Shown: positions 6,023 to 56,806 of the stretch, piece by piece | Layout: every line of letters begins with the position of its first letter | Numbering within the stretch: the stretch's first letter is position 1 | Virus record (IMG/VR): IMGVR_UViG_3300028558_000022 | Span: 1 to 64,000 of that record | Length of the DNA: 64,000 nucleotides | Direction: 5' to 3' (one strand) | Source: a virus | Notes under the pieces: model-generated | What the model was told of the DNA's origin: nothing | Database searches by the model: none | The model's input: the letters and a program-made list of their open reading frames with translations, nothing else | Made by a program: the position numbers and the translations under genes

Positions 6023-6096
6023 CGGGGAGTACCTCAGTTGGATAGAGGACCGGGCTATCTGCCCGGAAGTCGGTGGTTCGAGTCCACTCTGCCCGG
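6023..6096 (+). tRNA. tRNA-like gene, anticodon ATC (nominally Asp); atypical
   Basis: CGGGGAG TA CCTC..GAGG A CCGGG CTATCTG CCCGG AAGTC GGTGG TTCGAGT CCACT CTGCCCG. A34, T37, a G:G mismatch, an extended acceptor stem and no CCA. Confidence 0.65.
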
Positions 6097-6122
6097 CATC
6101 AAGTTGAGAGGAGAAAAAGTCA

Positions 6123-6377
6123 ATGAACATTCCGTTCTTTAGCAAGTTGTTTGCAAAGGTCAAGGCCAGCATTACGGCTGCCGAAGGCTCCGCGTTCGTC
6201 AAGATCGCAGAGGCCGAAGCGAAGGGTCTCGAAGCCAAGGGCCGTATTGTGGCAATCGACGCCGCGAACAAGGCCAAGACCGAGCTGGTCGCCTTCTACG
6301 AGAAGGAAGCCTCACGCGTTCACGCCGAGGCCGACAAGATCAAGGCAGACTTCGACGCGATTCTCGCGAAGCTGTAA
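6123..6377 (+). CDS. Ala/Lys-rich helical hypothetical protein
   Basis: ORF with GAGGAG RBS. Confidence 0.75.
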   Translation: MNIPFFSKLFAKVKASITAAEGSAFVKIAEAEAKGLEAKGRIVAIDAANKAKTELVAFYEKEASRVHAEADKIKADFDAILAKL

Positions 6378-6386
6378 TCGCATTAC

Positions 6387-6478
6387 GCCCCACGCGCAAC
6401 TTACCAATTACGCTGCACTGCCACTCGTGAAACGCGTGTAACGGTGGGAGGGCCGGTTTGATACCGGGGTGAGGCACC
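6387..6478 (+). ncRNA. possible tRNA-like structured RNA
   Basis: GCCCCAC/GTGAGGC-ACC terminal stem and a CCGG-TTTGATA-CCGG T-arm-like hairpin; no canonical D or anticodon arm. Confidence 0.3.
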
Positions 6479-6503
6479 TTAACATTTCTCGGAGATCACT
6501 CAA

Positions 6504-6614
6504 ATGATCGTAGTCCTTCTCGTCATGTGGTTACTGGGATACGGCGCTGCAATTGACGCCGCGTTCCATGCACACACTTTGCTCTTCATCCTTGGATTGA
6601 TCTTTCTCGGATAG
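6504..6614 (+). CDS. small membrane protein (36 aa)
   Basis: Manual translation MIVVLLVMWLLGYGAAIDAAFHAHTLLFILGLIFLG, with GGAG RBS. Confidence 0.6.
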   Translation: MIVVLLVMWLLGYGAAIDAAFHAHTLLFILGLIFLG

Positions 6615-6980
6615 AGCGCCAAGAACGCACGTAAACTCGCATTTCGGACATGGGTTCGATTCCCATCCGGTCCACCAGAGAGGGTAGTAGACTCGGGCTG
6701 GGTAATGTCACAACATTGGTCCTAGAGCAATACGACTGAGCTTGTGTACTACCTTCTCTTGTGGGCCGGTCACGGTTTCGACGGAATAAGGGCGTGCAAG
6801 TAGCCGACTACTTTAACAGCGGAAAACAACAACTGCCGAAACTCTCGTCAGTAAGCGTAGCGCAAAGGTGATCCCGTTCGTGAGCCGCAAGGTTCGCGCG
6901 TTGGTTCCACAGACCGCGATGCTGTTGGCAGCTTAGGCTGCCGGGGGTTCGTCCCGAATCCTAGCAACAGAAGTTCTCAC
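6615..6980 (+). ncRNA. ssrA: tmRNA, circularly permuted two-piece form
   Basis: The acceptor 3' half (TTTCGGAC ATGGG TTCGATT CCCAT CCGGTCC ACCA, ends 6677) precedes the 5' half (GGGCCGG TCACGGTTTCGACGG, starts 6763). G3:U70 pair; hairpin intervening segment; tag ORF 6835-6936 ends LLAA. Outer ends are approximate. Confidence 0.92.
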
Positions 6981-7016
6981 CGCGAAAGCACTGAGGACGG
7001 CGGGACTTTTTATGTT

Positions 7017-7135
7017 TCACCGAAAGCAGGGAGCACCTTGCGGGGCTTAATGGACCTGCCTGAAAGGTTGTCCTCTCCGGTGTCGTCCGCGCGGGCCGGA
7101 GATGAGTCAATAGACGGTAAAAATCCGTCCGGTGA
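7017..7135 (+). ncRNA. candidate multi-stem structured RNA
   Basis: TCACCG/CGGTGA closing stem enclosing four hairpins; non-coding; lies between the tmRNA and a tRNA-like gene. Confidence 0.4.
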
Positions 7136-7143
7136 GTAGCTCA

Positions 7144-7215
7144 AGATCGGTAGTTTAATGGCAAAACAACAGGCCCTTGCTGCCTGTGTTCCGGGTTCGA
7201 GTCCCGTCCGATCTT
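7144..7215 (+). tRNA. tRNA-like gene, anticodon TTG (nominally Gln); atypical
   Basis: AGATCGG TA GTTT..AAAC A ACAGGC CCTTGCT GCCTGT GTT CCGGG TTCGAGT CCCGT CCGATCT. C33 and C37; acceptor stem extends to 11 bp; no CCA. Confidence 0.65.
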
Positions 7216-7256
7216 GAGAATAGCTGTTCTTCCCGAAAATTTTTTCCTGAGGTCAA

Positions 7257-13003: not shown

Positions 13004-13175
13004 GTCAATCCCCTTCTAACGGAGTTGGACGCGTGCAAACTGAATTTAAGCCGGAATGCGAATATCAGCATAAGCAACGTAAAGCCGGAAACGAAAACCC
13101 GGATTATTGCGCGAACTGCGGGCACATCTACCGGGAACACCGGAACGGAAAATGCCCGCTTGACCTTGATTAAAC

Positions 13176-13204
13176 GCGGGCCGGATCGCAACCCGGCCCA
13201 GCTC
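13176..13204 (+). repeat. 29-bp intergenic hairpin repeat GCGGGCCGGATCGCAACCCGGCCCAGCTC, copy 1
   Basis: Identical copies at 16557-16585 and 18462-18490. Confidence 0.9.
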
Positions 13205-16545: not shown

Positions 16546-16556
16546 CCCGGACGCGG

Positions 16557-16585
16557 GCGGGCCGGATCGCAACCCGGCCCAGCTC
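16557..16585 (+). repeat. 29-bp intergenic hairpin repeat, copy 2
   Basis: Identical to 13176-13204. Confidence 0.9.
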
Positions 16586-16682: not shown

Positions 16683-17306
16683 ATGCTTATACACTCCAAA
16701 CTTGCAAGCTCTACAGTTAACGGCCCCGGAACCCGCGCGGTAATTTGGTTGCAGGGTTGCACGCTGAACTGTACCGGATGCTGGAACCCAAACACACACA
16801 AGTTCGACGCGTCTACTGATACGCCGGTATCGGAGCTTCAAACGTGGCTGCTAAACCTTGACGGCATCGAAGGGGTTACATTTAGCGGCGGCGAATCCTT
16901 ACAGCATGTTATAGAACTTTTACCACTTGCGAAGTTCATACGCGAAGTACGCCCGGAGCTGTCTATAGGCATCTTTACAGGGTACACGGCCCGCGAGCTG
17001 GAGACCGGGAACTGGCAGACGTTACACCCAGCCGGGGTTATGATTCCGGGTTCCGGCGAAGTTTGGGAAAAGTTCCGCGCGTATCTTGACTTTGCAGTTA
17101 TGGGGCGTTTTAACGCCTCAAAGCTCACAACGAAAAAACCGCTGTGCGGTTCGACTAATCAAGACATAATTTTGTTTACGGACCGTTACAACGCCGGGGA
17201 TTTTACGGCACAAGAAACCCAGATAACCATTGACGGGGACGGACTAGTCCAGATCACCGGGTTTCCCGGTCGCGAGTTTATCGAAGCTGTAAAGGGTATG
17301 AACTAA
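16683..17306 (+). CDS. NrdG-like radical SAM (4Fe-4S) protein
   Basis: NGPG.R.VIWLQGCTLNCTGCWNP, TFSGGE and GSTNQ. Confidence 0.9.
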   Translation: MLIHSKLASSTVNGPGTRAVIWLQGCTLNCTGCWNPNTHKFDASTDTPVSELQTWLLNLDGIEGVTFSGGESLQHVIELLPLAKFIREVRPELSIGIFTGYTARELETGNWQTLHPAGVMIPGSGEVWEKFRAYLDFAVMGRFNASKLTTKKPLCGSTNQDIILFTDRYNAGDFTAQETQITIDGDGLVQITGFPGREFIEAVKGMN

Positions 17307-17374
17307 CCCGGCCCAGCTCCGCACGCTTGAAGTTAACGCAATTACAACCCATCAGAAAACGGAGAACAAACACA

Positions 17375-18436
17375 ATGGCAACCCCGGAGATTATCCCTTT
17401 TGAAAACATTTTGATTCCATCAGACGCGGTAATCGCGGAACTTGCCGGAACCCCGGCCCCGGTTTCCGATATCCCAGCGGCCCCGGCCCCGGCTTTTGTG
17501 CCGGAGATCGCGGCCCCGTTCGATGCGGCCCCGGCCCCAAAAGATTTGACAGTCACGGACGCGTCAAGCCTAACGGCGGCAACTGTCTTTTTAAAAACCC
17601 GTTTTGGTATCATCGGGAACTCTCGCAAAGTGTCGGGCGCTGAAGTTCTGGACACGGACGCGGATAAAGCTCTATTGCGAGTGTCAAAACAGCTCTTAGA
17701 CTCGCCGGAGCTGGAAGCGATAAAGCAAGCCGATACAAAAATGCGGACGTGGTTGTATAACGCTTGCTTGCCTTACGATTTGGGCGTCCAACTCTTACCG
17801 AAAAAGTCAATCGAATCCGCACGCGCGAAAATGGCGGAGTTCCGGGCGGAACGCGCGGAACTGGTAGAGAACTTTGTCGCGGCCTATCCGGGGTTACTCG
17901 AAAAGGCGGCGGCCCAGCTCGGATCGCTTTTCAATGCGGCGGACTATCCGACAATTGAGCAAGTCCGGGCAAAGTTCTTTTTCGGTTGGAATATCGTTAC
18001 TTTCGAGGTTCCCGATTCTCTCAAAGAGATCAGCGAGCAAGTTTTTCAAGAGGAAAAGGCGAAGCAAGAGGCGAACTTCAAGGCGGCGGCGGACGAGATT
18101 ACCGCGCTAATGCGTCAAACCATGTTTGACCTAGTGTCACACTTGGAAACCCGGCTAACGCCCGGCGATGATGGGAAACAGAAAATTTTGAAGGAATCCG
18201 CCGTAGCGAATCTCCAAAAGTTTTTAGAATCGTTCGATATCAAAAACGTAACGAATGACGCGGAACTGGCGGCGGTTGTGTCAAAAGCTCGGGAATTAGT
18301 TGACGGTACGTCCGCCGCAACTCTCCGCAGTTCGGACGCGTTCCGCGAAAAGATACGCGCGGGAATGGCAAGCGTAAAGGATCAACTCTCTGGAATGGTC
18401 GAAGAAAAAGCCGGGCGCAAGTTCCGGGACGAATAA
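17375..18436 (+). CDS. DUF3150-like helical protein; C-terminus AGRKFRDE
   Basis: SKQLL; F...YP...LG.LFN..DYP....R.KF; N.TND.EL. GGAG RBS. Confidence 0.7.
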   Translation: MATPEIIPFENILIPSDAVIAELAGTPAPVSDIPAAPAPAFVPEIAAPFDAAPAPKDLTVTDASSLTAATVFLKTRFGIIGNSRKVSGAEVLDTDADKALLRVSKQLLDSPELEAIKQADTKMRTWLYNACLPYDLGVQLLPKKSIESARAKMAEFRAERAELVENFVAAYPGLLEKAAAQLGSLFNAADYPTIEQVRAKFFFGWNIVTFEVPDSLKEISEQVFQEEKAKQEANFKAAADEITALMRQTMFDLVSHLETRLTPGDDGKQKILKESAVANLQKFLESFDIKNVTNDAELAAVVSKARELVDGTSAATLRSSDAFREKIRAGMASVKDQLSGMVEEKAGRKFRDE

Positions 18437-18461
18437 CCCCGGCAAGCTCGCCGGATAGCAC

Positions 18462-18490
18462 GCGGGCCGGATCGCAACCCGGCCCAGCTC
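18462..18490 (+). repeat. 29-bp intergenic hairpin repeat, copy 3
   Basis: Identical to 13176-13204. Confidence 0.9.
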
Positions 18491-18794: not shown

Positions 18795-19208
18795 ACGCCC
18801 GTATACAGGGCCGGAACGGTCCCGAACGGGGAAACAATCCACACGGGCGGCCCGGATCGCACGGCGGCCCAAACCCGGCCCAGCTCGGGCCGGAATAAGC
18901 GAAGAGTACAGCGGGCCGGAGCTGGAAGAGTTTAACCGGTCCGGGGTTAGTTGCAAACACTTTGACAGTACGCCCGGACGCCGGGCGGGTTGTAATCGCT
19001 TCGCGACAATGGCGGCCCAGCTCGGGCCGGGGTTACCGCGAAGCGGCGGAGCAACGGCCCGAACGGGGCCGGAGACGCCCGGCGAAGCCGGACGCGGCCC
19101 GCGCGAGCGGGCGTACCGGTACGAGCGCCGGGGCGCCGGAAGTAATAAAACCATACGCGCTAATGGCTGGTACTTTGGCGCTTAATCGGCTGGTACTTTG
19201 GGGGACTT

Positions 19209-19436
19209 ATGCGGAATCCAGATTCTAGTCTGCAATGCGATATGCGAAAAGATTGCACGAACCGAGTTACTCACATTGGTTACAAAGGGTTCATCTACTG
19301 CGCGGAACATGCAAAGGGCCGCCGCTACTACGCGGGGGAAAATTGCCGCAAGATGCGCGTTTGGGAATTAAACCTGATTCGAGCTGGGAAACCATTGCCA
19401 TGTTATCAGCCGATACGAAAGCCGCAAGCGGCCTAG
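19209..19436 (+). CDS. small Cys/His (Zn-binding) protein
   Basis: CDM..DC...VTHI..KGFIYCAEH. Confidence 0.75.
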   Translation: MRNPDSSLQCDMRKDCTNRVTHIGYKGFIYCAEHAKGRRYYAGENCRKMRVWELNLIRAGKPLPCYQPIRKPQAA

Positions 19437-19495
19437 TGAGCTGGTACTCCGAACCGTCAACGAACGAACAACCAAACATTTTAGGAGAACTTACC

Positions 19496-20707
19496 ATGAA
19501 CTCAGTCATTGTTACGACCGTCGAGTCATTTTTGAAAGCACTCAAAGACACACACATCGAGCGCAAGTCAACTATCCCGATCCTTCAGTACGCGAAAGTC
19601 ACCCCGGACCGGATTGTCGGAACTGATTTGGACTTGTCCACAAATGTTTTCTACGACGGCGAAGGGTCCGGCGAGTTCCTGATTCCGTACCGTCAAACTC
19701 TTGACGCATTGAGCGGGGAAAAGGGGAAACTGGTAATCGAGTACACGCCCGGCCCGGTCACGTACCCGAAGAAAAAGGACGAGAACGGATTCGAGACAGA
19801 CGAAGACGATACGGAAAAGGTTCCGTATGAGGCGGCGGGGTTCGTGTCCTTCACTTTCGGCGAATTGGTATTCCGATTCAATTCTATGACTCTCAAGAAC
19901 TTCCCAGTTCAGCCGGAAGTGTCTGGTACTACGGTCACCATTGACCGGGCAGAGTTCGCGACAATGCTTGAACGCACACGGTTTGCAATCTCTCGCGAAG
20001 AGTCACGGTACACACTGAACGGGGCGCTTTTCGAGATCGCGAGCGGTAAAGCTCGCATGGTTGCGACGGACGGTCACCGGTTGTCGCTGTACGAGTCCGA
20101 ACATCGTGCAGTGGATCAGGTGAAAGCTCTTTTCCCATCGTCTGCTATCGCATGGCTTGACGCGCGGGCCGGTAAGAGTGATGCCATTATAACCATCGGC
20201 ACCGGGGACAGTGAGTCATACATTACCGTGACACTCGGAGACAGGCAGCTTACCGCGCGTAAGCTCTCCGGGCAGTTCCCGAACTGGGAAGCGATTATGC
20301 CGACGAAGTTCCAAACGTTTGTCAATATCCCATCCCCAGACAAGACGGCCAAAACACTTGCACGCGTGGCGAAGTGTTCCGACGAACGGAGTAACGCGGT
20401 TCGCTGGGCGTTCGATCCGGTCGGGGGAATGATTCATGCCAAGTCAACCGAACGCGGCGAAGCATCAGCCAAGCTCGATTGCAGCGTAACGTTTGCACCG
20501 GAAGAACCAAAGACGAACGAAGAGACCGGCGAGACCGAAGAACCTGTAAAAGAGTTGTGCATTGGACTAAATGCCAACTACATACAAGAGTTTCTGAAGT
20601 TGGCAAAGGATACGCCCGCAATCATGTCACTGAGAGACGGCAACTCCTTCGCGATGTTCAGCGCCGGGGATAACTGGAAGTACGTTGTCATGCCGATGCG
20701 AATGTAA
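19496..20707 (+). CDS. dnaN: DNA polymerase III beta sliding clamp homolog
   Basis: STIPIL, GTDLD, FAIS.EESRYTLNG, VATDGHRL, G.FPNW and C-terminal YVVMPMR; AGGAG RBS before ATG 19496. Confidence 0.92.
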   Translation: MNSVIVTTVESFLKALKDTHIERKSTIPILQYAKVTPDRIVGTDLDLSTNVFYDGEGSGEFLIPYRQTLDALSGEKGKLVIEYTPGPVTYPKKKDENGFETDEDDTEKVPYEAAGFVSFTFGELVFRFNSMTLKNFPVQPEVSGTTVTIDRAEFATMLERTRFAISREESRYTLNGALFEIASGKARMVATDGHRLSLYESEHRAVDQVKALFPSSAIAWLDARAGKSDAIITIGTGDSESYITVTLGDRQLTARKLSGQFPNWEAIMPTKFQTFVNIPSPDKTAKTLARVAKCSDERSNAVRWAFDPVGGMIHAKSTERGEASAKLDCSVTFAPEEPKTNEETGETEEPVKELCIGLNANYIQEFLKLAKDTPAIMSLRDGNSFAMFSAGDNWKYVVMPMRM

Positions 20708-20786
20708 GACGGCATCGGCTAAAGAGCTGGTACTTTGGCGGGCCGGTCTAGGCCCGCTCAACCCAACCAAACAACGGAGAACAGTT

Positions 20787-21398
20787 ATGCCAAAAGGTAG
20801 AGGGTTCGGAACACTGCAAAAAGGTGAGCGGATCACAGATTTGTCCGCTCTTCAATTGGGCCACATTTTATTGGAATACTCCACACAGTTCGACGCGGAG
20901 AACACAGTCAAGGTTGTCGCGATACTCGACGGTCGTGTCTATGTTCGATTCGTGAACCCGGAGAACACAGACGAGTTTGTCGGGCCGGAGTTCTGTATAT
21001 GGCACTGGGAGCTGGAATCAACACAGCTCTGGTTTGCTGAGACGGCGAAGCAGGAACGGGACGTTACGGAATGGCTCGCGATACCGGCTTACGGTCACTT
21101 CTATCGGCTGAATGACGGCGAGTTGGAATACCGGCCAATGATGGACGATGGCACGATGGACCCAGACGAAGACGCGGGCGGGTTTGCCGATCCGTTCGAG
21201 GGTGCGCCGGATGCAGTTCACAGGCTGAGTAAGATACTGGAAAACTTTTTAGAGAATCCGCAAACCGGCGAGAACGTAATGATTGGCGTTTATCTCAGGA
21301 TGCCACAACTCTTTCAGACACCGGAGGCAAAGTCTGTATTGCCTATTGTGTGCGAAGAGCACGGTACCCGGTTCGGCGATCACTGCAACTGTCTTTAA
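20787..21398 (+). CDS. hypothetical protein
   Basis: GGAG RBS, ATG 20787. Confidence 0.7.
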   Translation: MPKGRGFGTLQKGERITDLSALQLGHILLEYSTQFDAENTVKVVAILDGRVYVRFVNPENTDEFVGPEFCIWHWELESTQLWFAETAKQERDVTEWLAIPAYGHFYRLNDGELEYRPMMDDGTMDPDEDAGGFADPFEGAPDAVHRLSKILENFLENPQTGENVMIGVYLRMPQLFQTPEAKSVLPIVCEEHGTRFGDHCNCL

Positions 21399-21436
21399 CC
21401 AACCGGCTTATTGAGCTGGTACTCAGGAGACCTTTT

Positions 21437-23263
21437 ATGTTCACAGATAATCCAGACTTTTATCCTACCCCTCGCTGGCTTGCCCGTAAGATGCTCGCGA
21501 AGATCACGAACACGGATGCGAAGTATTTTCTGGAACCCGAAGCCGGGAAAGCCGACATCGCCGACGTTATCAAAAACCCTTGTACATACGAAGAATGGTG
21601 CGCGGAGAACCCAGACGAACAGGTTCAAGAGAATCGCCGGACGGGACGCGGTTACGGCGCTTGGAGTGACCGGGACCGGTACCGTCGAGTGAACATCGAC
21701 GTGATAGAGAGTCACCCGGCACTGCTTCAGGTACTCAAGGGAAAAGGCTACGACGTTGTAGGCTATGACTGGCTTACCTACGAAGGCGTCAGCTACTATG
21801 ACGCGATCATAATGAATCCGCCATTTAGTGAAGGGGCAAAGCATTTACTAAAGGCTTGGGATTTCCTTCACCACGGCGAGATTGTTTGCCAGCTCAATGA
21901 AGAGACTCTGAAGAATCCTTATACCGACGAGCGTAAACGGCTGGTACATCTGATCGAGCAGTTCGGAAACGTCGAATACTTGGGAGATTGCTACACGACG
22001 GCGGAGCGTAAGACGAACGTCAATGTGGCTCTGGTCTACCTGAAAAAGGTTGCGGAAGATGACGCCCCGGACCTTTGGGCAAAGGCGCCGACGCAAGAGA
22101 AGAGCTACGGCGTCGAGTTTGACGGCGATCCTAATATGCTCGCGATCCGGGACAATCTCGGGAACATGGAACATTGGTTCAACATGGCGAACGAGCACTG
22201 GGTTAAAGGGATCGAGCACATTCGCAAGGCAGCCGTGTACATGAACCAAAACAAGGTCAAGGACTACAGCTCCGACGACCGGGACGACTTCAAAAAGATT
22301 CTGACAATGGCTTTGGAGAACGTCCACACAAGCCGGGCTGAGTTCCTGAGGCGTCACCGTAAGCTCGCATGGACAAGCGTCTTTCAACAAATGGAGTTCG
22401 GGCGCTGGCTGGACTCAAAGCAGCAAGCTCGTTTTCTCCGGGACGTGGAACGCGACAGCACGATTCCGTTCACTGCGGAGAATATCCGCATGACTCTTGA
22501 GAACGTCTTTCTATCTCGTAACAAGTTGTTCGACGAGAGTGTGGCAAATGTTTTTGACGAGCTTTGCAGCCATTCTGTAGAAAATGGCTCCGGGCCGGTC
22601 ATGCCGTCCACGATCCGCGAGCACCGTAGCGAAGGTTGGAAGACGAACGACAGTTACAAGGTGAATCAGCGTCTCGTGTTCCCTTGGGCCGTCGAAGTGG
22701 ACTACGGCGGCAAACTCCGCCAAAAGGGTTACGGCTCAAGCGACAGCGCAAGGGTATGCAGCGACCTAGACCGTATCTTGTGCGTTCTGGACGGACGTTC
22801 GTTCGAGAGCTGCTACACGGTCGGACAGGCTATCGATAAGGCACGGCCCGGCGAGCTGGTTGAATCGCAATACTTCGAGATTCGCGGCTACAAAAAGGGA
22901 ACGCTTCACTTGAAGTGGAAGCGCGAGGACTTGTGGCAACGATTCAATGAGACGGCGGCGGCTGGTAAAAAGTGGCTCGGAGAAGACACCCAGCAGTACA
23001 GACCGAAGACGAAGCGCAAAGACCCAGACCTTTACTGCAAGAATCACGGCCACAAGTTTGTCAATGGGGAGTGCGAACGCTGCGAAGACCCGGAGATTGA
23101 CGAGACCTTATCGGTCGAGTGTGAGCTTTGCCGGGCAGTGTTTGAGTACACCGGAGTCAAGGAATGTCCAATACATTCGCAGCTCCCTTCCCTTCCCCAG
23201 ATGCCCGGCGCCGTGCTTGCACTCACGGACGGCAACCAACATACAACCGTATCGGCCTATTGA
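21437..23263 (+). CDS. class I SAM-dependent DNA methyltransferase with DUF4942-like domain
   Basis: FYPTP, LEPEAGK, IIMNPPF, GWKTND and FEIRGYKKGTLH. Confidence 0.85.
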   Translation: MFTDNPDFYPTPRWLARKMLAKITNTDAKYFLEPEAGKADIADVIKNPCTYEEWCAENPDEQVQENRRTGRGYGAWSDRDRYRRVNIDVIESHPALLQVLKGKGYDVVGYDWLTYEGVSYYDAIIMNPPFSEGAKHLLKAWDFLHHGEIVCQLNEETLKNPYTDERKRLVHLIEQFGNVEYLGDCYTTAERKTNVNVALVYLKKVAEDDAPDLWAKAPTQEKSYGVEFDGDPNMLAIRDNLGNMEHWFNMANEHWVKGIEHIRKAAVYMNQNKVKDYSSDDRDDFKKILTMALENVHTSRAEFLRRHRKLAWTSVFQQMEFGRWLDSKQQARFLRDVERDSTIPFTAENIRMTLENVFLSRNKLFDESVANVFDELCSHSVENGSGPVMPSTIREHRSEGWKTNDSYKVNQRLVFPWAVEVDYGGKLRQKGYGSSDSARVCSDLDRILCVLDGRSFESCYTVGQAIDKARPGELVESQYFEIRGYKKGTLHLKWKREDLWQRFNETAAAGKKWLGEDTQQYRPKTKRKDPDLYCKNHGHKFVNGECERCEDPEIDETLSVECELCRAVFEYTGVKECPIHSQLPSLPQMPGAVLALTDGNQHTTVSAY

Positions 23264-23289
23264 GCTGGTACTTCAGGAGGAACAAAGTC

Positions 23290-23628
23290 ATGTCACGTTG
23301 GAAGACAGGACAAGTTGTATCGGCAATCTCAGTAGTGCCCGGCGTACTAGTAGGGGCACTGAGCGCGGGCGAGGACTACACAACGCAACAGATAACGCTC
23401 ATAGTTGACGGATCGGAAAACAATCTCTTCGTTCGTGGATTCGTCACGGATCATAAGCCGCTCAATGGCGACGACGACGTAGACGTAGAGATGGTCGAAG
23501 TCACGACCGGCTACTCAGACGGCGATATGCCGAACGATCCCATTCTCGTCGTGGCTCACGGGCAAGTGTCGGCGGCCCTGATGCAACTCGGTCACAAAGT
23601 AGTTCGCAGCATGGACCCGTACTTTTGA
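23290..23628 (+). CDS. hypothetical protein
   Basis: AGGAGG RBS, ATG 23290. Confidence 0.75.
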   Translation: MSRWKTGQVVSAISVVPGVLVGALSAGEDYTTQQITLIVDGSENNLFVRGFVTDHKPLNGDDDVDVEMVEVTTGYSDGDMPNDPILVVAHGQVSAALMQLGHKVVRSMDPYF

Positions 23629-23945
23629 TGAACTGTTTCGGCGAAGGCGCTCAGCACGTACCGGGCTGTAATTGTCGGACGGTTTTCCTATCAACCGGGG
23701 CCAAACTAGCGGCCCCTAAACCTAAAGCGGAGAAACCCGAAATGAAGCGATTTAAAGGATTCATGAGACTGATACTCGGTCACGATCAACCGGAGTTCAT
23801 CGAGTTTGATGCAACTCACTACCGCGCGGCGGGCGTACCGGCGTCAACGTTCGCCGGGATGCCGATTCTCGAAGCTCACGAGCTGGTCAACAAGTGGAAC
23901 AGTCAACAGATCGCCGGGCAGCGATTCATTTACTGGCTGGCTTAG
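23625..23945 (+). CDS. hypothetical protein
   Basis: Coupled ORF; has an internal RBS/ATG. Confidence 0.65.
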   Translation: MMNCFGEGAQHVPGCNCRTVFLSTGAKLAAPKPKAEKPEMKRFKGFMRLILGHDQPEFIEFDATHYRAAGVPASTFAGMPILEAHELVNKWNSQQIAGQRFIYWLA

Positions 23946-23954
23946 GGAGGTCAG

Positions 23955-24239
23955 ATGCGGGGACAGTTCAAACGCATGGTACAGAACACAGTACCAACCC
24001 CGAACCTAGCGTTCCGTCGATTTAGAACATGCGACCGGAAAAAGGTTTACGAGAATATGGCGGCGGACTGGCAAGCCGTTGCACATATCAAGGCGAACGG
24101 CAAAGACTTTTACCCAGACTTCGAGCTTAGACCATACGAGTGTACCTACTGTGGCAGTATTCACGTCGGACACTCCAACACACCCAAGAGCACCGAGGCC
24201 CGGATGCGGGCACAAGAACAAAGCGTATCCGCTCAATGA
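23955..24239 (+). CDS. small Zn-finger-like phage protein
   Basis: C..K..Y and Y.C.YCG..HVGH; GGAGG RBS. Confidence 0.75.
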   Translation: MRGQFKRMVQNTVPTPNLAFRRFRTCDRKKVYENMAADWQAVAHIKANGKDFYPDFELRPYECTYCGSIHVGHSNTPKSTEARMRAQEQSVSAQ

Positions 24240-24288
24240 GCTGGTACTTTCCTTCAACCTCTAACCAAGATTTCAGGAGATCACGACA

Positions 24289-24732
24289 ATGAGCGTACAG
24301 ACAAGAACCAAGACTCTCTCACAGAAGACCATTGATGGCTTGCTCGCAATCGCGGCGGCAGTTCTCGCAAACCCGAAGGACTATAACCAAGAGCAATTTG
24401 TCAACGTCATGTTCGATACGGATACGCGCGAGATCGGATGCTTAGCCCTGTTCCATTCGCAGATTTCGTCAACCGAACGGGCGCACAAACTCCGAGTGAA
24501 GAAGACCCGGCGTGCCTCACTGACATCACCTATCGAGAGTCCGTTCTTCAGCAAGGTGAAGAAGGATTTCAAACTTGACGACGAGCAGACACGAAGGCTC
24601 TTTGGCTCGACTATCGACTGGCCGGAGAAGTTCCGCACAGCTTACAACAATGCGAACGCGTACACCAAGGCCCGCGCCCGCGTCGCCGAGCGTCGCATCA
24701 AGCACTTCATCAAGACCAACGGCGCCGAGTAA
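24289..24732 (+). CDS. hypothetical protein, tandem paralog A
   Basis: AVLA.PK.YNQ, GCLA and WPEKFR shared with the next gene. Confidence 0.8.
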   Translation: MSVQTRTKTLSQKTIDGLLAIAAAVLANPKDYNQEQFVNVMFDTDTREIGCLALFHSQISSTERAHKLRVKKTRRASLTSPIESPFFSKVKKDFKLDDEQTRRLFGSTIDWPEKFRTAYNNANAYTKARARVAERRIKHFIKTNGAE

Positions 24733-24790
24733 TCGGCGCCCCGCCAACCCCTCCCTAAACCATTCACCAAGATTTCAGGAGATCAAAGTC

Positions 24791-25210
24791 ATGAGCACAA
24801 CGAAAAGCAAAAAGAATCTTTCCCGTAAGGCCATCAACTTCCTCACCCGACTAGCCGAGGCCGTTCTCGCCGACCCGAAGCACTACAACCAAGGTTCGTA
24901 TCTTCGTACGAACGACAAGGGCGAACAGTTTGGCTGCCTTGCGTTCTTTGCCGCGAGGCTCCGCGCAAAGACAGCGAAGGCACTCACAGAACTCACATGG
25001 GGCGACGTGGCAAACACTCGCTGGGATGTCTGGGACGAGCTAGGGTTGCCGGGCGCCGAAAACGGCGGTAGCGACGTGATGTTCTCAACAGAATATCAGT
25101 GGCCCGAGAAGTTCCGCAGACAGTTCGAACAAGCCAAGGGTCCGAAGGGTCAAGCACGCGCGGCCTACAACCGGATCATGCACTTTATCGCAACTGACGG
25201 CGCCGAGTAA
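24791..25210 (+). CDS. hypothetical protein, tandem paralog B
   Basis: Same motifs; identical 20-bp upstream leader. Confidence 0.8.
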   Translation: MSTTKSKKNLSRKAINFLTRLAEAVLADPKHYNQGSYLRTNDKGEQFGCLAFFAARLRAKTAKALTELTWGDVANTRWDVWDELGLPGAENGGSDVMFSTEYQWPEKFRRQFEQAKGPKGQARAAYNRIMHFIATDGAE

Positions 25211-25241
25211 CCAGCGCCCGGCAACCCCAAGGGAGACAGGT

Positions 25242-25619
25242 ATGCACACTTCAGGATTCATGACGTGGTGGACTCTGACAATGGTTATCGCTCTGGGACA
25301 CATGGCGATACACGAGCTGGGTCACGTCTTCGTGGCCCTTGGGGTCGGATCAAAGGTCAAGGGGATCGGGTTCAACCGGCTGGGACCGTATGTAGTACGG
25401 CAAGCCTCTCCCGATCCATTCTTGAACGTTCTAGTCGCACTGGGCGGCCCGGCAGCGAACCTCTTGACGTGGTACGTGCTACTCGCCTTGGGATGTGACG
25501 CACATAACCCGCGCGTCTACTGCGCTTTGTTTTTTGCTGTGTTCAACCTTTTGCCTCTTCCCCACTCGGACATGACAAAAGCGTTGTGCTACGCATCGGA
25601 GGATATCACCAAGTGTTGA
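25242..25619 (+). CDS. minimal M50/site-2 protease family membrane peptidase
   Basis: IHELGH, GGPAAN and FNLLPLPHSD. Confidence 0.8.
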   Translation: MHTSGFMTWWTLTMVIALGHMAIHELGHVFVALGVGSKVKGIGFNRLGPYVVRQASPDPFLNVLVALGGPAANLLTWYVLLALGCDAHNPRVYCALFFAVFNLLPLPHSDMTKALCYASEDITKC

Positions 25620-25882
25620 GATATCAGTATGAAATTGACGAAGAGCTGGAGGCTCTTCGCACGCTCAAGGACGAGGCCGAAGGTAACGAGGAACGCGTCG
25701 ATTGCATCGAGGCCCAGATAACCACAATCAAGGACGGACTCAAGCGCCAAGCCGTCGAAGAGTTGTACGAAGACGACCCGGCAGCAATGGAAGCGGCGGT
25801 CGTAGCGCATCGCTGGTACTGGGAAGACGACGAAGCGTCATCCCGTGTGTGGCAGTCCGAAGAGTACGCACAGGCCGCCTAA
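25613..25882 (+). CDS. acidic hypothetical protein
   Basis: GGAGG RBS, GTG start. Confidence 0.7.
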   Translation: MLRYQYEIDEELEALRTLKDEAEGNEERVDCIEAQITTIKDGLKRQAVEELYEDDPAAMEAAVVAHRWYWEDDEASSRVWQSEEYAQAA

Positions 25883-25958
25883 TCGAGCTGGTACTTTATC
25901 AGCTATAATTTGCATCCAACACCGGACCTAACACGTCTGGTACATAGGAGACAATCCC

Positions 25959-26753
25959 ATGAAAGAACCTGAGATCAAACTTCCGCCGACCGAGCAATGG
26001 ATTGAACGAAAGCAGTCCGGGTCTCGTGGCTACGATCCGATTACCGAGACTCATCCGTCCTATGGCATCATCGGCATTCATCACTCGTTCTGGAGTCGCA
26101 CACTGTTTGACAGCGACGTTGTACATCAACACTTCATCTCGATCTCGATCAAGAATGCCCAGCGTGTGATCGACGGAACACATGAGCACATCATGGGCAC
26201 GGGTCAAGAACTGATTGAAATCCACATGACCGAGGCACAGTTCGCCCAACTGATCGCGCGGCCCAACGTCGGCGACGGCGTACCGTGTACGATCAACCAC
26301 TGCAAGAGCGATTTTGCAAAGGCTGAAACCGAGCCGTGGGTTCACCCGCGACACGGCGGGCGCCCCGATCCACCGGAGCCGGAGAAGTTCGACCTCAAGT
26401 TCAAAAAGGAAACCGGCGAGCGGGCGCAAATCATCGTTGACGCACTGAACAGTCTGCAAAGTATGATTGACAAGTTCTTGTCAGGTGAGGAGAAGCCGAA
26501 CAAGACCACCCTGAAAACGCTCAAGGGACAAGTCAGCTCAGCTCTGCTGCAAATTCAGAGTAATCTACCGTGGGTTCAAGAGGTCGCCGCCGAGCAGTTG
26601 GAAAAGAAGATCGCTTCTGCCATCGTCGAGTTCGAGAGCTTCGTCAACATGAGTTTACAGCGTCGTGGACTCGCCGCGATGCAGAACGAGGCGCCAAGAT
26701 TATCCGTGCCATTAGTGACCAACGAGCCAGTAATCCCACTTTTAGGTGACTGA
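25959..26753 (+). CDS. conserved hypothetical phage protein
   Basis: HPSYG, LFDSDV.H, EI.MTEAQFA.LI and G.GVPCTI. Confidence 0.8.
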   Translation: MKEPEIKLPPTEQWIERKQSGSRGYDPITETHPSYGIIGIHHSFWSRTLFDSDVVHQHFISISIKNAQRVIDGTHEHIMGTGQELIEIHMTEAQFAQLIARPNVGDGVPCTINHCKSDFAKAETEPWVHPRHGGRPDPPEPEKFDLKFKKETGERAQIIVDALNSLQSMIDKFLSGEEKPNKTTLKTLKGQVSSALLQIQSNLPWVQEVAAEQLEKKIASAIVEFESFVNMSLQRRGLAAMQNEAPRLSVPLVTNEPVIPLLGD

Positions 26754-26809
26754 CAAGTAATCATTAACGGTGCGAAATTTAACACATCGGTTTTGTGAGG
26801 GGATCAAAC

Positions 26810-27337
26810 ATGCAACACCTTACCCGCGATGAATTTAAAGCCCTCGTTGGGGCAATCCGCGACCCTAAGCATCGCCTGATGCTGAAAGTGGGGTTCAATC
26901 ACGGTCTACGTGTAAGCGAGTTGACCGGGTTGACCGGAGCAAGTATCCGGGACGGTTACGTGACTGTGCAACGGCTCAAAGGTTCGATGAAAACAATCCA
27001 GCCGTACCAGTCCCACGAAGACCCTTTGCTCGATGAGGCAAGAGAGCTGGCAGACTTGGCCGCCAAGCTCAAGCCGAGCGAGCGTCTCTTCAACATCACC
27101 CGGTCGGGTGTGTTGAAGCTAATCAAGCGTGCTGGCAAACGTGCCGGGATTCCCGAGCACAAGCTGTTCGCTCACGTCTTGAAGCACTCCATCGCCATGC
27201 AAACAATCCATACAGCCGGGATCGAGAATGTCCGGCAATGGCTGGGCCACAAGAACATTTCCAGTACGGGCGCCTACCTCCGGGTATCAGACGAGGCCGC
27301 CGCGCTCGCTATCGGAAGGGCGATGACAATTGAATAG
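26810..27337 (+). CDS. small FimB/FimE-like tyrosine recombinase (catalytic domain only)
   Basis: GLRVSE, RLKGS, HVLKHS (K in place of R in HxxR), LGH and STGAY; 175 aa. Confidence 0.88.
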   Translation: MQHLTRDEFKALVGAIRDPKHRLMLKVGFNHGLRVSELTGLTGASIRDGYVTVQRLKGSMKTIQPYQSHEDPLLDEARELADLAAKLKPSERLFNITRSGVLKLIKRAGKRAGIPEHKLFAHVLKHSIAMQTIHTAGIENVRQWLGHKNISSTGAYLRVSDEAAALAIGRAMTIE

Positions 27338-28879: not shown

Positions 28880-29102
28880 TACGAAGTGATACGAAAAAAC
28901 TTGTCCCTACAGGCCCCAAGGTATCCTCTGTATCGCGTATATCGTAAATAATAAACAGCTATCTTCCTCTCGATCAGTGGTTTGCAAGTTAAGCGCCTAT
29001 CTGTCTGGTACTTAGGCGACGGCGACAAGTCGAATCCCACTCTCTCCGCCAGAGCCTTTAAAATCAATAACTTAGCAAATGTGATACGAAGTGTGATACG
29101 AT
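28876..29102 (+). mobile_element. attP: tRNA-Ser-like core with arm repeats and an IHF site
   Basis: Core TCGAATCCCACTCTCTCCGCCA (29030-29051) resembles a tRNA-Ser 3' end. Paired GTGATACGA(A/T) repeats at 28876/28886 and 29081/29093. IHF consensus AATCAATAACTTA at 29062-29074. Confidence 0.85.
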
Positions 29103-29109
29103 CTTCGCT

Positions 29110-30252
29110 ATGAATGTGAAGGTCAATCTCACGAAGCGTATCAATATAGACGGACAGAAGCGGTTCGTCCCAGTCGTTCAGGCGGCCAACGGTCGGATCA
29201 AAGCCGACTGGGTAGTGATCGACGGCGCCGAGCAACGGTATCCCGGTGGGAGCTTCTACATAGACTGGACCGAAGGCGGCAAGCGTCGGCGGGAATCGGT
29301 CGGCGTGAGCGCGGCGACGGCGGTTGCCCGGCAGCTCCGCAAGGAAGCTGAACTCAAGGCTAAGGGTCAAGGACTTACCGTAACCTCTCAAGACGACCGC
29401 GACCGGCGCCTGACGGTCGAGACAGCCGTATCCGCCTATCTGGAAGAGATCGCACTCACAAAGAAGCCTAAGACCGTTTCGGCCTACACGACGAGCCTGT
29501 CCTATTTTCAAGAATCTTGTACAAAGACCTACATCGATGAGATCGAGCGGCTGGACATGATCCGGTTCCATGCGTACCTGAGGGACAAGAAGGCACAGTC
29601 CCCGCGTAGCTGCTGGAACAAATTCTCGAACGTGATGGGATTCCTGAAGGCTCAAGGTGTTCGCAAGATCGTGAAGCCGGGCGATTGGCCGAGGTACGTC
29701 GAAGAGGAGCCAGAGGCATACGAGCGGGAAGAGCTTGACAAGTTCTTCGACGCTTGTAACGACAATGAGCGTACTCTGTACGAGTTCTTCCTCATGACCG
29801 GGATGCGTGAGCAAGAGGTCATGCACGCCATGTGGCAAGACGTGAACCTCAAGCAAGGGACGATTGCGATGAAGTGGAAGCCCGAGCTTGACTGGACTCC
29901 CAAGGCGTACAAGGAACGCGAGATTCCCGTTCCTACAAAACTTTTGAAGAAGCTCGAAGATCGCCGACCGGCGAACGGACGCGGCTTGATCTTCCCTACC
30001 TCTGGCGGCCTACCAAACGGTCACTTCCTTTTGTTCTGCAAGAACATTGCGAAGCGTGCCGGTCTCGATCCCGAGAGCTGGTGGCTTCACAAGTTCCGCG
30101 CGACGTTCGCAACGTGGCACCTTCAGGCCGGGGTCGATCTGCGGACCGTACAGAAGTGGCTCGGTCACACAGACCTTGAGTCAACTATGCGGTACCTGAA
30201 GGCCGCCCGTGGCGCCGAGGTTCAGGCGAAGGTCAACCAGACGTTCGCCTAG
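29110..30252 (+). CDS. int: tyrosine integrase
   Basis: TGMREQE, K, HKFRATF, LGH and TMRY; N-terminal arm-binding and core-binding domains. Confidence 0.95.
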   Translation: MNVKVNLTKRINIDGQKRFVPVVQAANGRIKADWVVIDGAEQRYPGGSFYIDWTEGGKRRRESVGVSAATAVARQLRKEAELKAKGQGLTVTSQDDRDRRLTVETAVSAYLEEIALTKKPKTVSAYTTSLSYFQESCTKTYIDEIERLDMIRFHAYLRDKKAQSPRSCWNKFSNVMGFLKAQGVRKIVKPGDWPRYVEEEPEAYEREELDKFFDACNDNERTLYEFFLMTGMREQEVMHAMWQDVNLKQGTIAMKWKPELDWTPKAYKEREIPVPTKLLKKLEDRRPANGRGLIFPTSGGLPNGHFLLFCKNIAKRAGLDPESWWLHKFRATFATWHLQAGVDLRTVQKWLGHTDLESTMRYLKAARGAEVQAKVNQTFA

Positions 30253-56757: not shown

Positions 56758-56806
56758 TTTGACAAAATGACAAACAATTGACAAGGCCCCAGCACTGTGA
56801 TAAACC
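56758..56806 (+). promoter_or_regulatory. degenerate operator plus rightward promoter inside the late region
   Basis: TTTGACAAAATGACAAA; TTGACA(56778)-17 nt-TAAACC. Confidence 0.55.

Follow-up and report, generated by a model that had tools for sequence, protein, structure and literature searches.

A strand-specific TGGTACT motif at the gene junctions of a phage accessory block, a possible operator-like site for a phage-encoded transcription factor

The virus contig IMGVR_UViG_3300028558_000022 (IMG/VR) carries a repeated motif built around the heptamer TGGTACT, eight co-oriented copies of which mark gene junctions from 19.16 to 25.9 kb in a block of accessory genes that precedes a gene for a small tyrosine-recombinase-like protein. 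The window analysed was the first 64 kb (64,000 nucleotides) of this 90,978-bp contig. Comparison with Tunturi_3, a Tunturiibacter phage from tundra soil (podovirus of Acidobacteriota, 97.6 kb; PMC11924767), gave 56% identity for the DNA polymerase and 50–70% for the core genes. The core genes are likewise 50–70% identical to those of a terminally repeated IMG/VR contig of 99 kb, called here G001 (locus L035, of which L061 is a near-identical copy); at closest, the relatives compared stand at about 50–60% protein identity. The early and replication genes lie on the + strand (2–50 kb) and the structural genes on the − strand. The main landmarks of the region are the following:

17327–18436, + strand: left border gene (369 amino acids), conserved among the three phages compared (annotation of the homologue in Tunturi_3: HNH endonuclease)
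19209–26753, + strand: accessory (hyperplastic) block of approximately 17 co-oriented genes
24250–25228, + strand: tandem duplication of approximately 500 bp, comprising a 5′ untranslated region, a gene of approximately 140 amino acids and a terminal hairpin with the stop codon in its loop (GGCGCCGAGTAATCGGCGCC)
26810–27337, + strand: catalytic-domain-only tyrosine-recombinase-like protein (175 amino acids), pattern R..K..HxxK..H..Y
29110–30252, + strand: full-length tyrosine integrase (380 amino acids), adjoining a tRNA-like piece

The copies of the motif were collected by searching the window with the pattern GCYTAWTGAGCTGGTACT, allowing up to three mismatches, and the outcome was compared with that of 100 dinucleotide-preserving shuffles. 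Seven matches were obtained, all on the + strand, while 0.07 were expected (shuffle mean) and none of the 100 shuffles reached seven. An eighth copy, which forms a 23-bp tandem pair with its neighbour, was added by reading the sequence. The heptamers start at 19168, 19191, 19442, 20728, 21417, 23266, 24242, and 25889, and the copies are as follows:

19157–19175, + strand: copy 1, GCGCTAATGGC-TGGTACT-T, first half of the 23-bp tandem at the block start
19178–19198, + strand: copy 2, with a TAA stop codon (19183–19185) inside, 11 nucleotides (nt) before the ATG at 19209
19431–19448, + strand: copy 3, with the TAG stop codon of a 75-residue Cys-rich open reading frame (ORF) inside, 47 nt before the clamp start at 19496
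20717–20735, + strand: copy 4, following the clamp gene, with an 8-bp hairpin upstream and a GC hairpin downstream (fold z = −3.7)
21406–21423, + strand: copy 5, directly followed by the Shine–Dalgarno sequence of the DUF4942/methyltransferase gene (21437–23263)
23255–23273, + strand: copy 6, with the TGA stop codon of the methyltransferase gene inside and a Shine–Dalgarno sequence directly after
24231–24249, + strand: copy 7, with the perfect palindrome GCTCAATGAGC and a TGA stop codon inside; the 500-bp duplication starts at 24250
25877–25896, + strand: copy 8, with a TAA stop codon inside

Alignment of the copies gave the consensus GC-Y-T-A-W-T-(n)-G-R-G-C-TGGTACT-(T), in which TGGTACT is invariant and conservation stops after GGTACT(T). 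The extended core was restricted to this stretch, no other such context being present in the whole 90,978-bp contig, and TGGTACT was the top-enriched heptamer of any 15-kb segment; the GCYTAWT box by itself showed no enrichment. Every copy stands in the gap that separates a stop codon from the following ribosome-binding site. Five of the eight (those with heptamers at 19191, 19442, 23266, 24242, and 25889) have the stop codon of the preceding ORF within them, and in two others it lies 18–20 nt upstream of the motif. Measured from the last base of the heptamer, the following start codon is 11–63 nt away in all eight, and a Shine–Dalgarno sequence comes 1–3 nt after the motif in three (19191, 21417, 23266). 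The palindrome of the left part is perfect (4+3+4) only at 24231–24241 and imperfect in the remaining copies. These findings bear out what the sequence-only reading had described, namely eight co-oriented junction copies with an imperfect left palindrome and an abrupt end of conservation that often lies right before a ribosome-binding site. Its count of four copies overlapping or abutting the upstream stop codon needs correction, the stop codon being inside the motif in five. A variant heptamer, TGGTACA at 25938, abuts the Shine–Dalgarno sequence of the gene at 25959–26753. Copies 1 and 2 (19157–19198) end an approximately 400-nt noncoding GC-rich stretch (18795–19208), a place equivalent to the block start of G001. 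A look-alike at 29006 was considered as a ninth copy, but it lacks GAGC and lies inside the tRNA-like piece beside the full-length integrase, and therefore it was not counted. An IMG/VR-wide search with the motif yielded 33 single matches, which represented chance or one unrelated coding region.

The motif occupies exactly the stretch that the canonical promoter class of this phage leaves empty. In that class, the palindromic operator TTTGACAAnTTGTCAAA is usually followed 3–30 nt later by TTGACA-N17-TAnnnT. Twelve copies of it were found, at 1.5–18.1 kb and 27.7–43.1 kb, and none at 19–27 kb; those within 1547–43131 lie at 1553, 5614, 11335, 12182, 13894, 16593, 27696, 30623, 33548, 41585, and 43112, and one lies also at 56758. 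The promoter scan detected no sigma-70-type promoter or intrinsic terminator in the 19–27 kb region. The TTTGACAAnTTGTCAAA operator is absent from G001 and Tunturi_3. Another repeated signal, the hairpin GGGCCGGATCGCAACCCGGCCC-AGCTC, marks the unit ends in the 11–19 kb block (13170–13200, 16551–16581, 18456–18486, and 18841–18871, with partial copies at 17305 and 18872). The AGCTC..CC of this hairpin is the reverse complement of the GAGCTGG part of the motif.

The gene content between the 369-residue border gene and the small recombinase is almost wholly different in this phage, G001, and Tunturi_3, and downstream of the recombinase the exonuclease, Cas4-like, and RNA-ligase genes are again conserved in the compared phages. 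The units between the motif copies hold one to four genes each. The cargo consists of the 75-residue Cys-rich ORF, a beta clamp (identified by PF02767/PF02768; its identical-protein cluster counts four contigs), a 203-residue ORF, the DUF4942/methyltransferase gene, small orphan ORFs, two tandem paralogues, an M50-like ORF whose Peptidase_M50 match is short (30.4 bits, cut-off 27.2), and a phrog_6452 ORF. Homology of the tandem duplication begins exactly at the 3′ edge of motif copy 7, and its second copy is not preceded by a motif. The sole gene that the variable block has in common among the compared phages encodes a 67-residue protein (23742–23945, "MPxLEAHELVNKWN"; homologues at L035, 1515–1724; L060, 4–174; L034, 22893–23129). 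It adjoins the motif in all three motif-bearing phages. This protein was rejected as the binder of the motif, since Tunturi_3 also has it but has no motif. The 75-residue Cys/His-rich protein (19209–19436), encoded by the first gene after the tandem motif, contains a C-x5-C ... C-x2-H pattern and could be a small zinc-binding protein. Searches of viral contigs with the clamp and the ATPase as queries yielded no close relative in which gain or loss at the motif could be followed.

To follow the core word in relatives, contigs encoding the small recombinase (17 viral, 72 metagenome, and 9 genome) were examined, and only three lineages among them carried TGGTACT. In G001, 28 copies lie on the gene strand versus one on the other within 20.5 kb. 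All 28 are at 72.7–89.8 kb of the 99 kb, the word being at chance level elsewhere, and they lie in the syntenic variable block that adjoins the gene of the homologous 175-residue recombinase. The information content of their flanks is near zero, so conservation is limited to the seven bases, and variants with one mismatch are not enriched. Approximately ten G001 copies are truly intragenic, in all three frames and including one inside the recombinase gene, and another coincides with a conserved Gly-Thr of the exonuclease gene, where the present phage uses other codons. This indicates selection on the nucleotide word and not on the protein, and TGGTACT is accordingly selected as such on a single strand of a single region. 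The third lineage, a 1.9-kb contig (L060), carries the word three times, always on the gene strand. Directly after the homologue of the 67-residue protein, one copy takes the long form TAG-CGCCTATTGGTT-TGGTACTT-GGGAGGA..ATG, in which a stop codon, the motif, and a ribosome-binding site succeed one another. The places of the heptamer in L035 and L060 are non-homologous, and Tunturi_3 shows no enrichment of TGGTACT. At least three related phages show an enrichment of 25- to 30-fold, limited to a single strand of a single variable block. In contrast, the word is approximately two-fold rarer than its reversed control in all five Acidobacteriota metagenome-assembled genomes (MAGs; G002–G006) with related (pro)phage loci, for example 286 versus 646 in 5.4 Mb. 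This depletion rules out a host Chi-like word, and it means that a factor reading TGGTACT would meet few sites on the host chromosome. Comparable strict heptamers were sought in approximately 25 other recombinase-bearing loci, where only codon-like biases or different repeats were seen. One prophage-like locus of an Acidobacteriaceae MAG (L130, 10894–15951) has its own five-copy junction repeat, TGAGYGTAATSGMGATTTWTC, downstream of the small recombinase gene; the position is comparable, but the repeat is a different one.

The arrangement at the block start of G001 bears on the level at which the word may act. There, a strong intrinsic terminator is followed by an A-rich tract and then by the heptamers (L035, 780–1530), the seven-copy cluster lying in a 700-bp noncoding region. 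Five of these lie at approximately −96 to −50 of a consensus promoter, the sixth is its −10 element, and the seventh is at approximately +55. Since the upstream copies are outside the RNA made from that promoter, a DNA-level site is indicated. Moreover, TGGTACTnT is the extended −10 (TTGACA-N14-TGGTACTnT) in three of the seven consensus promoters inside the G001 block versus none of the eight outside, and one of these three drives the small recombinase gene.

Considering the exact word, its confinement to one strand and one region, the copies around and in a promoter as well as in genes, its rarity in host genomes, and the absence of the canonical operator-plus-promoter class from exactly 19–27 kb, we tentatively read the motif as a DNA-level site for a sequence-strict, phage-encoded transcription factor, which would control the accessory block in an operator- or stoperator-like manner. 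We hold this to be possible rather than probable, and protein binding, the repressing or roadblock effect, and the identity of the protein are what we infer. The likeliest action of such a factor, put forward with the same reserve, may be promoter occlusion combined with an orientation-dependent hindrance of elongation. The factor would read the exact heptamer on the coding strand, a word imitating the extended −10 element of the group (TGGTA). Where the heptamer lies over a promoter −10, the bound factor would occlude RNA polymerase, and where it lies at cistron junctions or inside genes, it would act on the elongating polymerase in one orientation, as Cluster A stoperators do. In the present phage the site would have grown to approximately 20 bp, consisting of the AT-rich, stop-bearing GCYTAAT box, GAGC, and the heptamer, and would have settled in the short gaps between stop codons and the next ribosome-binding sites. 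As 18–29-bp repeats at the unit borders, the extended sites could also offer homology for the shuffling of units by the UvsX-type recombinase of the phage, and such unit exchange by homologous recombination would fit the complete turnover of cargo between relatives. Precedents are found in the stoperators of Cluster A mycobacteriophages (PMC9283540), in FliZ, the binding sites of which resemble an extended −10 without having to be promoters (PMC3367168), in the SPBRE repeats bound by the recombinase-fold repressor MrpR (PMC10516654), and, with respect to repeat-based modular shuffling, which has been shown, in the PeSLs (PMC2839356).

Several points weigh against a dedicated DNA-binding factor. 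Seven base pairs are short for a specific repressor site, and the motif is regional, whereas stoperators are genome-wide. No −35/−10 promoter can be recognised that overlaps any of the eight copies in this phage, thus occlusion is visible in the relative only, and the position of all eight just upstream of genes suits promoters equally well as roadblocks. Furthermore, when the small ORFs of the block were compared with Pfam, PHROG, and NCBIfam, nothing emerged that would qualify as the motif-binding protein; the 75-residue Cys-rich ORF, as a candidate binder, gave no family match.

A close rival, which we nevertheless regard as rather unlikely, is that the motif defines a factor-dependent promoter class, that is, a strict −10-type element used without a −35 by the host RNA polymerase together with a phage sigma-like or sigma-remodelling factor. 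Each copy would then give rise to its own transcript, covering the one to four genes that follow, as in a PeSL-like cassette of a hyperplastic region. The lack of any detectable sigma-70-type promoter at 19–27 kb, the position of all eight copies upstream of start codons, and a strictness and host rarity such as a phage-specific promoter would have are all in favour of this. A strict word of such length has a parallel in the T4 late promoter, the 8-bp TATAAATA. The order of stop codon in an AT-rich box, G-T-paired stem-loop over the −10, Shine–Dalgarno sequence, and start codon is also the PeSL layout (PMC2839356). Further support comes from the relatives. In both G001 and Tunturi_3, consensus promoters follow the pattern TTGACA-N14/15-TGn-TAnnnT, frequently with TGG-TA, so that TGGTA coincides with their extended −10. 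Two paralogous promoter-plus-leader copies of L035 differ only at the −10, where they carry TGCTATTCT and TGGTACTCT, respectively, and leaderless initiation is evidently used, as the promoter of the small recombinase in L035 (9960–10010) reads TTGACA-N14-TGGTACTCT-N6-ATG and has no Shine–Dalgarno sequence.

On the other hand, the copies of the present phage match a −35 in 1–3 of 6 positions at best, the last hexamer position (T−7) is T in only five of the eight copies and in 10 of 28 in L035, and there is no enrichment of variants nearer to TATAAT. The two unvarying bases, C and T, sit at the hexamer positions that are of least importance in sigma-70 promoters. The invariance of these two bases, the variable last base of the hexamer, and the missing −35 point to a dedicated factor rather than to plain sigma-70 recognition. 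In addition, a start approximately 7 nt downstream would fall after the Shine–Dalgarno sequence in three copies, five abutting L035 copies lie upstream of a −35, and the L035 copies are not enriched upstream of gene starts, since 9 of 21 within approximately 100 nt is roughly the expectation for such small genes. No sigma region-2 homologue was found either. A T7-type or other phage RNA polymerase promoter was considered and rejected, because the six-frame genome gave no match to PF00940 or to sigma-70 region 2 (the PF00940 search was made without a positive control) and no early ORF is large enough; a sigma-54 promoter (TGGCAC-N5-TTGC) was rejected as nothing is conserved downstream of the heptamer. 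The overlap of the word with promoters could be partly opportunistic, because an existing TGGTA needs just two changes to become TGGTACT. The alternative raised in the sequence-only reading, a regulated promoter class with an extended −10, came nearer the mark than its main proposal did, as TGGTA is indeed the extended −10 of the group, but the evidence goes against recognition by plain sigma-70.

It is improbable, in our estimate, that the motif works as an RNA signal in a polycistronic sense transcript. On this reading, a hairpin with GAGCUGGUAC as its 3′ arm would form an inter-cistron processing or stability site, so that the upstream mRNA would keep a hairpin at its 3′ end and a new 5′ end would arise at the ribosome-binding site that follows. 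The sense-strand specificity, the location between stop codon and Shine–Dalgarno sequence, and the abrupt end of conservation before the latter agree with such a role. With the help of G-U pairs, the unvarying 3′ half GAGCUGGUAC can form duplexes with upstream partners that vary, the mean duplex energy being −9.26 kcal/mol versus −7.68 ± 0.76 kcal/mol in random windows (p ~0.02), while the antisense strand is at the control level. However, this hairpin signal is weak, folds of single copies gave z values of −0.4 to −3.7 and were not significant except at 20728, and GTAC, being self-complementary, readily finds pairing partners. No flank whatsoever is conserved in L035, and the five L035 copies that follow the strong terminator and precede the promoter are probably not transcribed, which argues against a purely RNA-level role.

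Similarly little weight can be given to another polar DNA signal, such as a preferred primase site, a position for site-specific nicking, or a mark that steers a translocase or nuclease away from an origin-like control region at the block start. In favour of this, the word is exact, keeps to one strand, is regionally dense, and is tolerated in coding sequence. It resembles TGGTC, the template site of T7 gp4 primase; a T7-type primase-helicase and several nucleases are encoded by this phage, and in G001 the seven-copy cluster stands beside the A-rich tract. Nevertheless, primase sites are normally trinucleotides and genome-wide, nothing ties the region to an origin, the depletion in host-type genomes excludes a host Chi-like word, and Tunturi_3 has the neighbouring HNH-like gene as well but is without the word.

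The small recombinase next to the array deserves separate consideration. It matched PF00589 (Phage_integrase) with 64.5 bits over residues 8–166 (profile positions 2–170 of 172), where residue 8 belongs to the GTG-started ORF at 26795–27337 and corresponds to residue 3 of the 175-residue protein, and it has no N-terminal core-binding domain, only the catalytic domain. All 19 aligned members share GLRxSE, RLKGS, HxxLKHS, and LGHxS..STxxY, and Arg-II is replaced by Lys in each of them (HVLKHS versus HVLRHA of XerD), while the other five catalytic positions are conserved. Since these residues are otherwise invariant, the protein is probably still an enzyme. The sequence-only reading had characterised it correctly as a 175-residue recombinase with HxxK for HxxR and no N-terminal binding domains, and its account of the cargo (clamp, methyltransferase, S2P-type peptidase, and duplicated genes) likewise held, although the peptidase match is the short one mentioned above. 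In the AlphaFold model (pLDDT 76), the best Foldseek matches were the catalytic domains of Xer, lambda Int, and P2 Int, followed more weakly by the recombinase-fold phage repressors SroF and YopR. The family comprises proteins of approximately 175–182 residues with 44–66% identity, encoded in approximately 100 Acidobacteriota soil phage, prophage, and MAG loci (L034–L051, L058–L138), and all of its relatives in bacterial genomes are in Acidobacteriota MAGs. In size and coverage only, the protein is FimB/FimE-like (NF007371, residues 9–162 versus profile 7–172 of 198; 40 bits, cut-off 222). A FimB-like invertase segment was nonetheless rejected, as no convincing inverted repeats flank any segment near the recombinase. 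In a quick, unfinished version of the recombinase tree, the motif lineages were basal (this phage, L035, and L058/L059, with L060 at the base of a 55-member clade); on this tree the motif-bearing lineages might have a single origin, but the 55-member clade has no comparable word. The 380-residue integrase is likely the true integration module, separate from the motif system.

That TGGTACT is the target of this adjoining R-K-H-K-H-Y protein has only a slim chance of being correct. The protein would then be a nicking-closing or recombining enzyme, or an MrpR-like regulator, in an undescribed system that marks, controls, and reshuffles the block in this clade of Acidobacteria phages. The promoter of the G001 recombinase itself, being leaderless and having the heptamer as its −10, would fit autoregulation.

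The weakest proposal is the one the sequence-only reading had put first, an integron-like cassette system in which the recombinase would cut and rejoin at the motif so that units are excised and inserted, and from the sequences at hand we regard it as very improbable. The array ends one gene before the recombinase here and the heptamer cluster of G001 adjoins its recombinase too, the cargo between conserved borders is completely exchanged, the motif lineages are basal in the tree, and the catalytic residues are invariant except Arg-II; however, the motif accompanies the recombinase in only three lineages of approximately 100 loci, no inverted arm pair surrounds a 6–8-bp spacer, the site of the 99-kb relative is a bare heptamer that occurs even inside the recombinase gene and at places non-homologous to those of L060, the units hold one to four genes, the protein without its DNA-binding domain and with Lys for Arg-II is encoded in co-orientation at the far end of the array, its matches to the integron-integrase models are 34.6 bits for TIGR02249 (cut-off 265, residues 102–169 only) and 22 bits for NF011946 (cut-off 435), and a separate full-length integrase with its own attachment site is present. 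The description as a cassette-like array stands in a loose sense, because the cargo differs in the three phages and the motif lies at the unit borders here, but the integron mechanism is not supported, and the attractive analogy is corrected by the present analysis.

A few properties of the record may be added. The ends of the contig overlap (1–133 and 90846–90978), the last 60 bases recurring at positions 74–133; judged by this repetition, the record is probably a closed circle or terminally redundant, although it is classed as linear. ARAGORN predicted four tRNA genes (Leu, Asn, Asp, and Gln; 348–509 and 6023–7216) and two overlapping transfer-messenger RNA-like genes, one of them permuted, at 6239–7027.

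To our knowledge, very little work has been devoted to phages of Acidobacteriota, a phylum abundant in soil, and there is no knowledge of how they control their genes. The exact 7-base word provides a testable cis-element for them, and its reader, if identified, would open the regulatory logic of the group and could explain the turnover of accessory genes. The conserved 175-residue family with Lys for Arg-II is uncharacterised and merits biochemical study in its own right.

Among known systems, integrons share with the motif array the co-oriented units, a repeated site that may overlap the stop codon, and a nearby tyrosine recombinase. attC sites are imperfect palindromes of 57–141 nt (R″/L″ and L′/R′ boxes) that are read as folded single strands, and IntI is a full-length recombinase with an extra domain, encoded divergently at the head of the array beside attI and the promoter Pc; all of these traits are absent here. 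In contrast, the motif measures 18–21 nt and its neighbouring recombinase consists of the catalytic domain alone and is co-oriented, one gene after the last copy. FliZ (PMC3367168) derives from the core-binding domain, whereas the small recombinase is the catalytic domain alone. MrpR/YopR of SPbeta with SPBRE (PMC10516654) sets the precedent for a recombinase-fold protein on repeated intergenic sites, but MrpR keeps both domains and has lost most catalytic residues, whereas the small recombinase has one domain with residues invariant except for Arg-II to Lys.

The SAS/ESAS elements of Cluster K mycobacteriophages (PMC3203893) are, like the motif, one-orientation repeats next to gene starts that sometimes contain the upstream stop codon; they too are confined to the non-structural half of the genome, are linked with varied gene families, and have no known function. 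SAS, however, contains the Shine–Dalgarno core and lies 3–7 bp from the start codon, while the motif ends before the Shine–Dalgarno sequence, 11–63 nt from the start. The PeSLs of T4-type phages (PMC2839356, PMC4122927) are repeated composites before orphan genes in hyperplastic regions, they have the layout described above, and their repeats serve as homology for shuffling. The motif shares the location in a hyperplastic region between the stop codon and the Shine–Dalgarno sequence of non-core genes. PeSLs have a full sigma-70 −35/−10 and a strong GC stem-loop, whereas the motif has no −35 and a weak stem-loop, and its exact heptamer is also intragenic in a relative.

The stoperators and operators of Cluster A phages, recognised by the L5 gp71-type repressor (PMC9283540), differ in being 13 bp long and genome-wide, while the conserved word has 7 bp (approximately 20 bp in this phage) and is confined to one block of 7–17 kb. 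They have a cognate repressor, the reader of the motif being only putative, and unlike in Cluster A, one motif-bearing relative is without a full-length integrase and may be lytic. Some Cluster A sites overlap an early promoter; for the motif, overlap with promoters is seen in the three G001 consensus promoters that have the heptamer as −10 and in none of the eight copies of this phage. In other respects the two resemble each other: like the motif, the Cluster A sites are asymmetric, present in many copies with a group-specific sequence, placed in short intergenic gaps where they often touch stop or start codons, and co-oriented with transcription, which applies to all eight copies here, to 28 versus one in L035, and to three versus none in L060.

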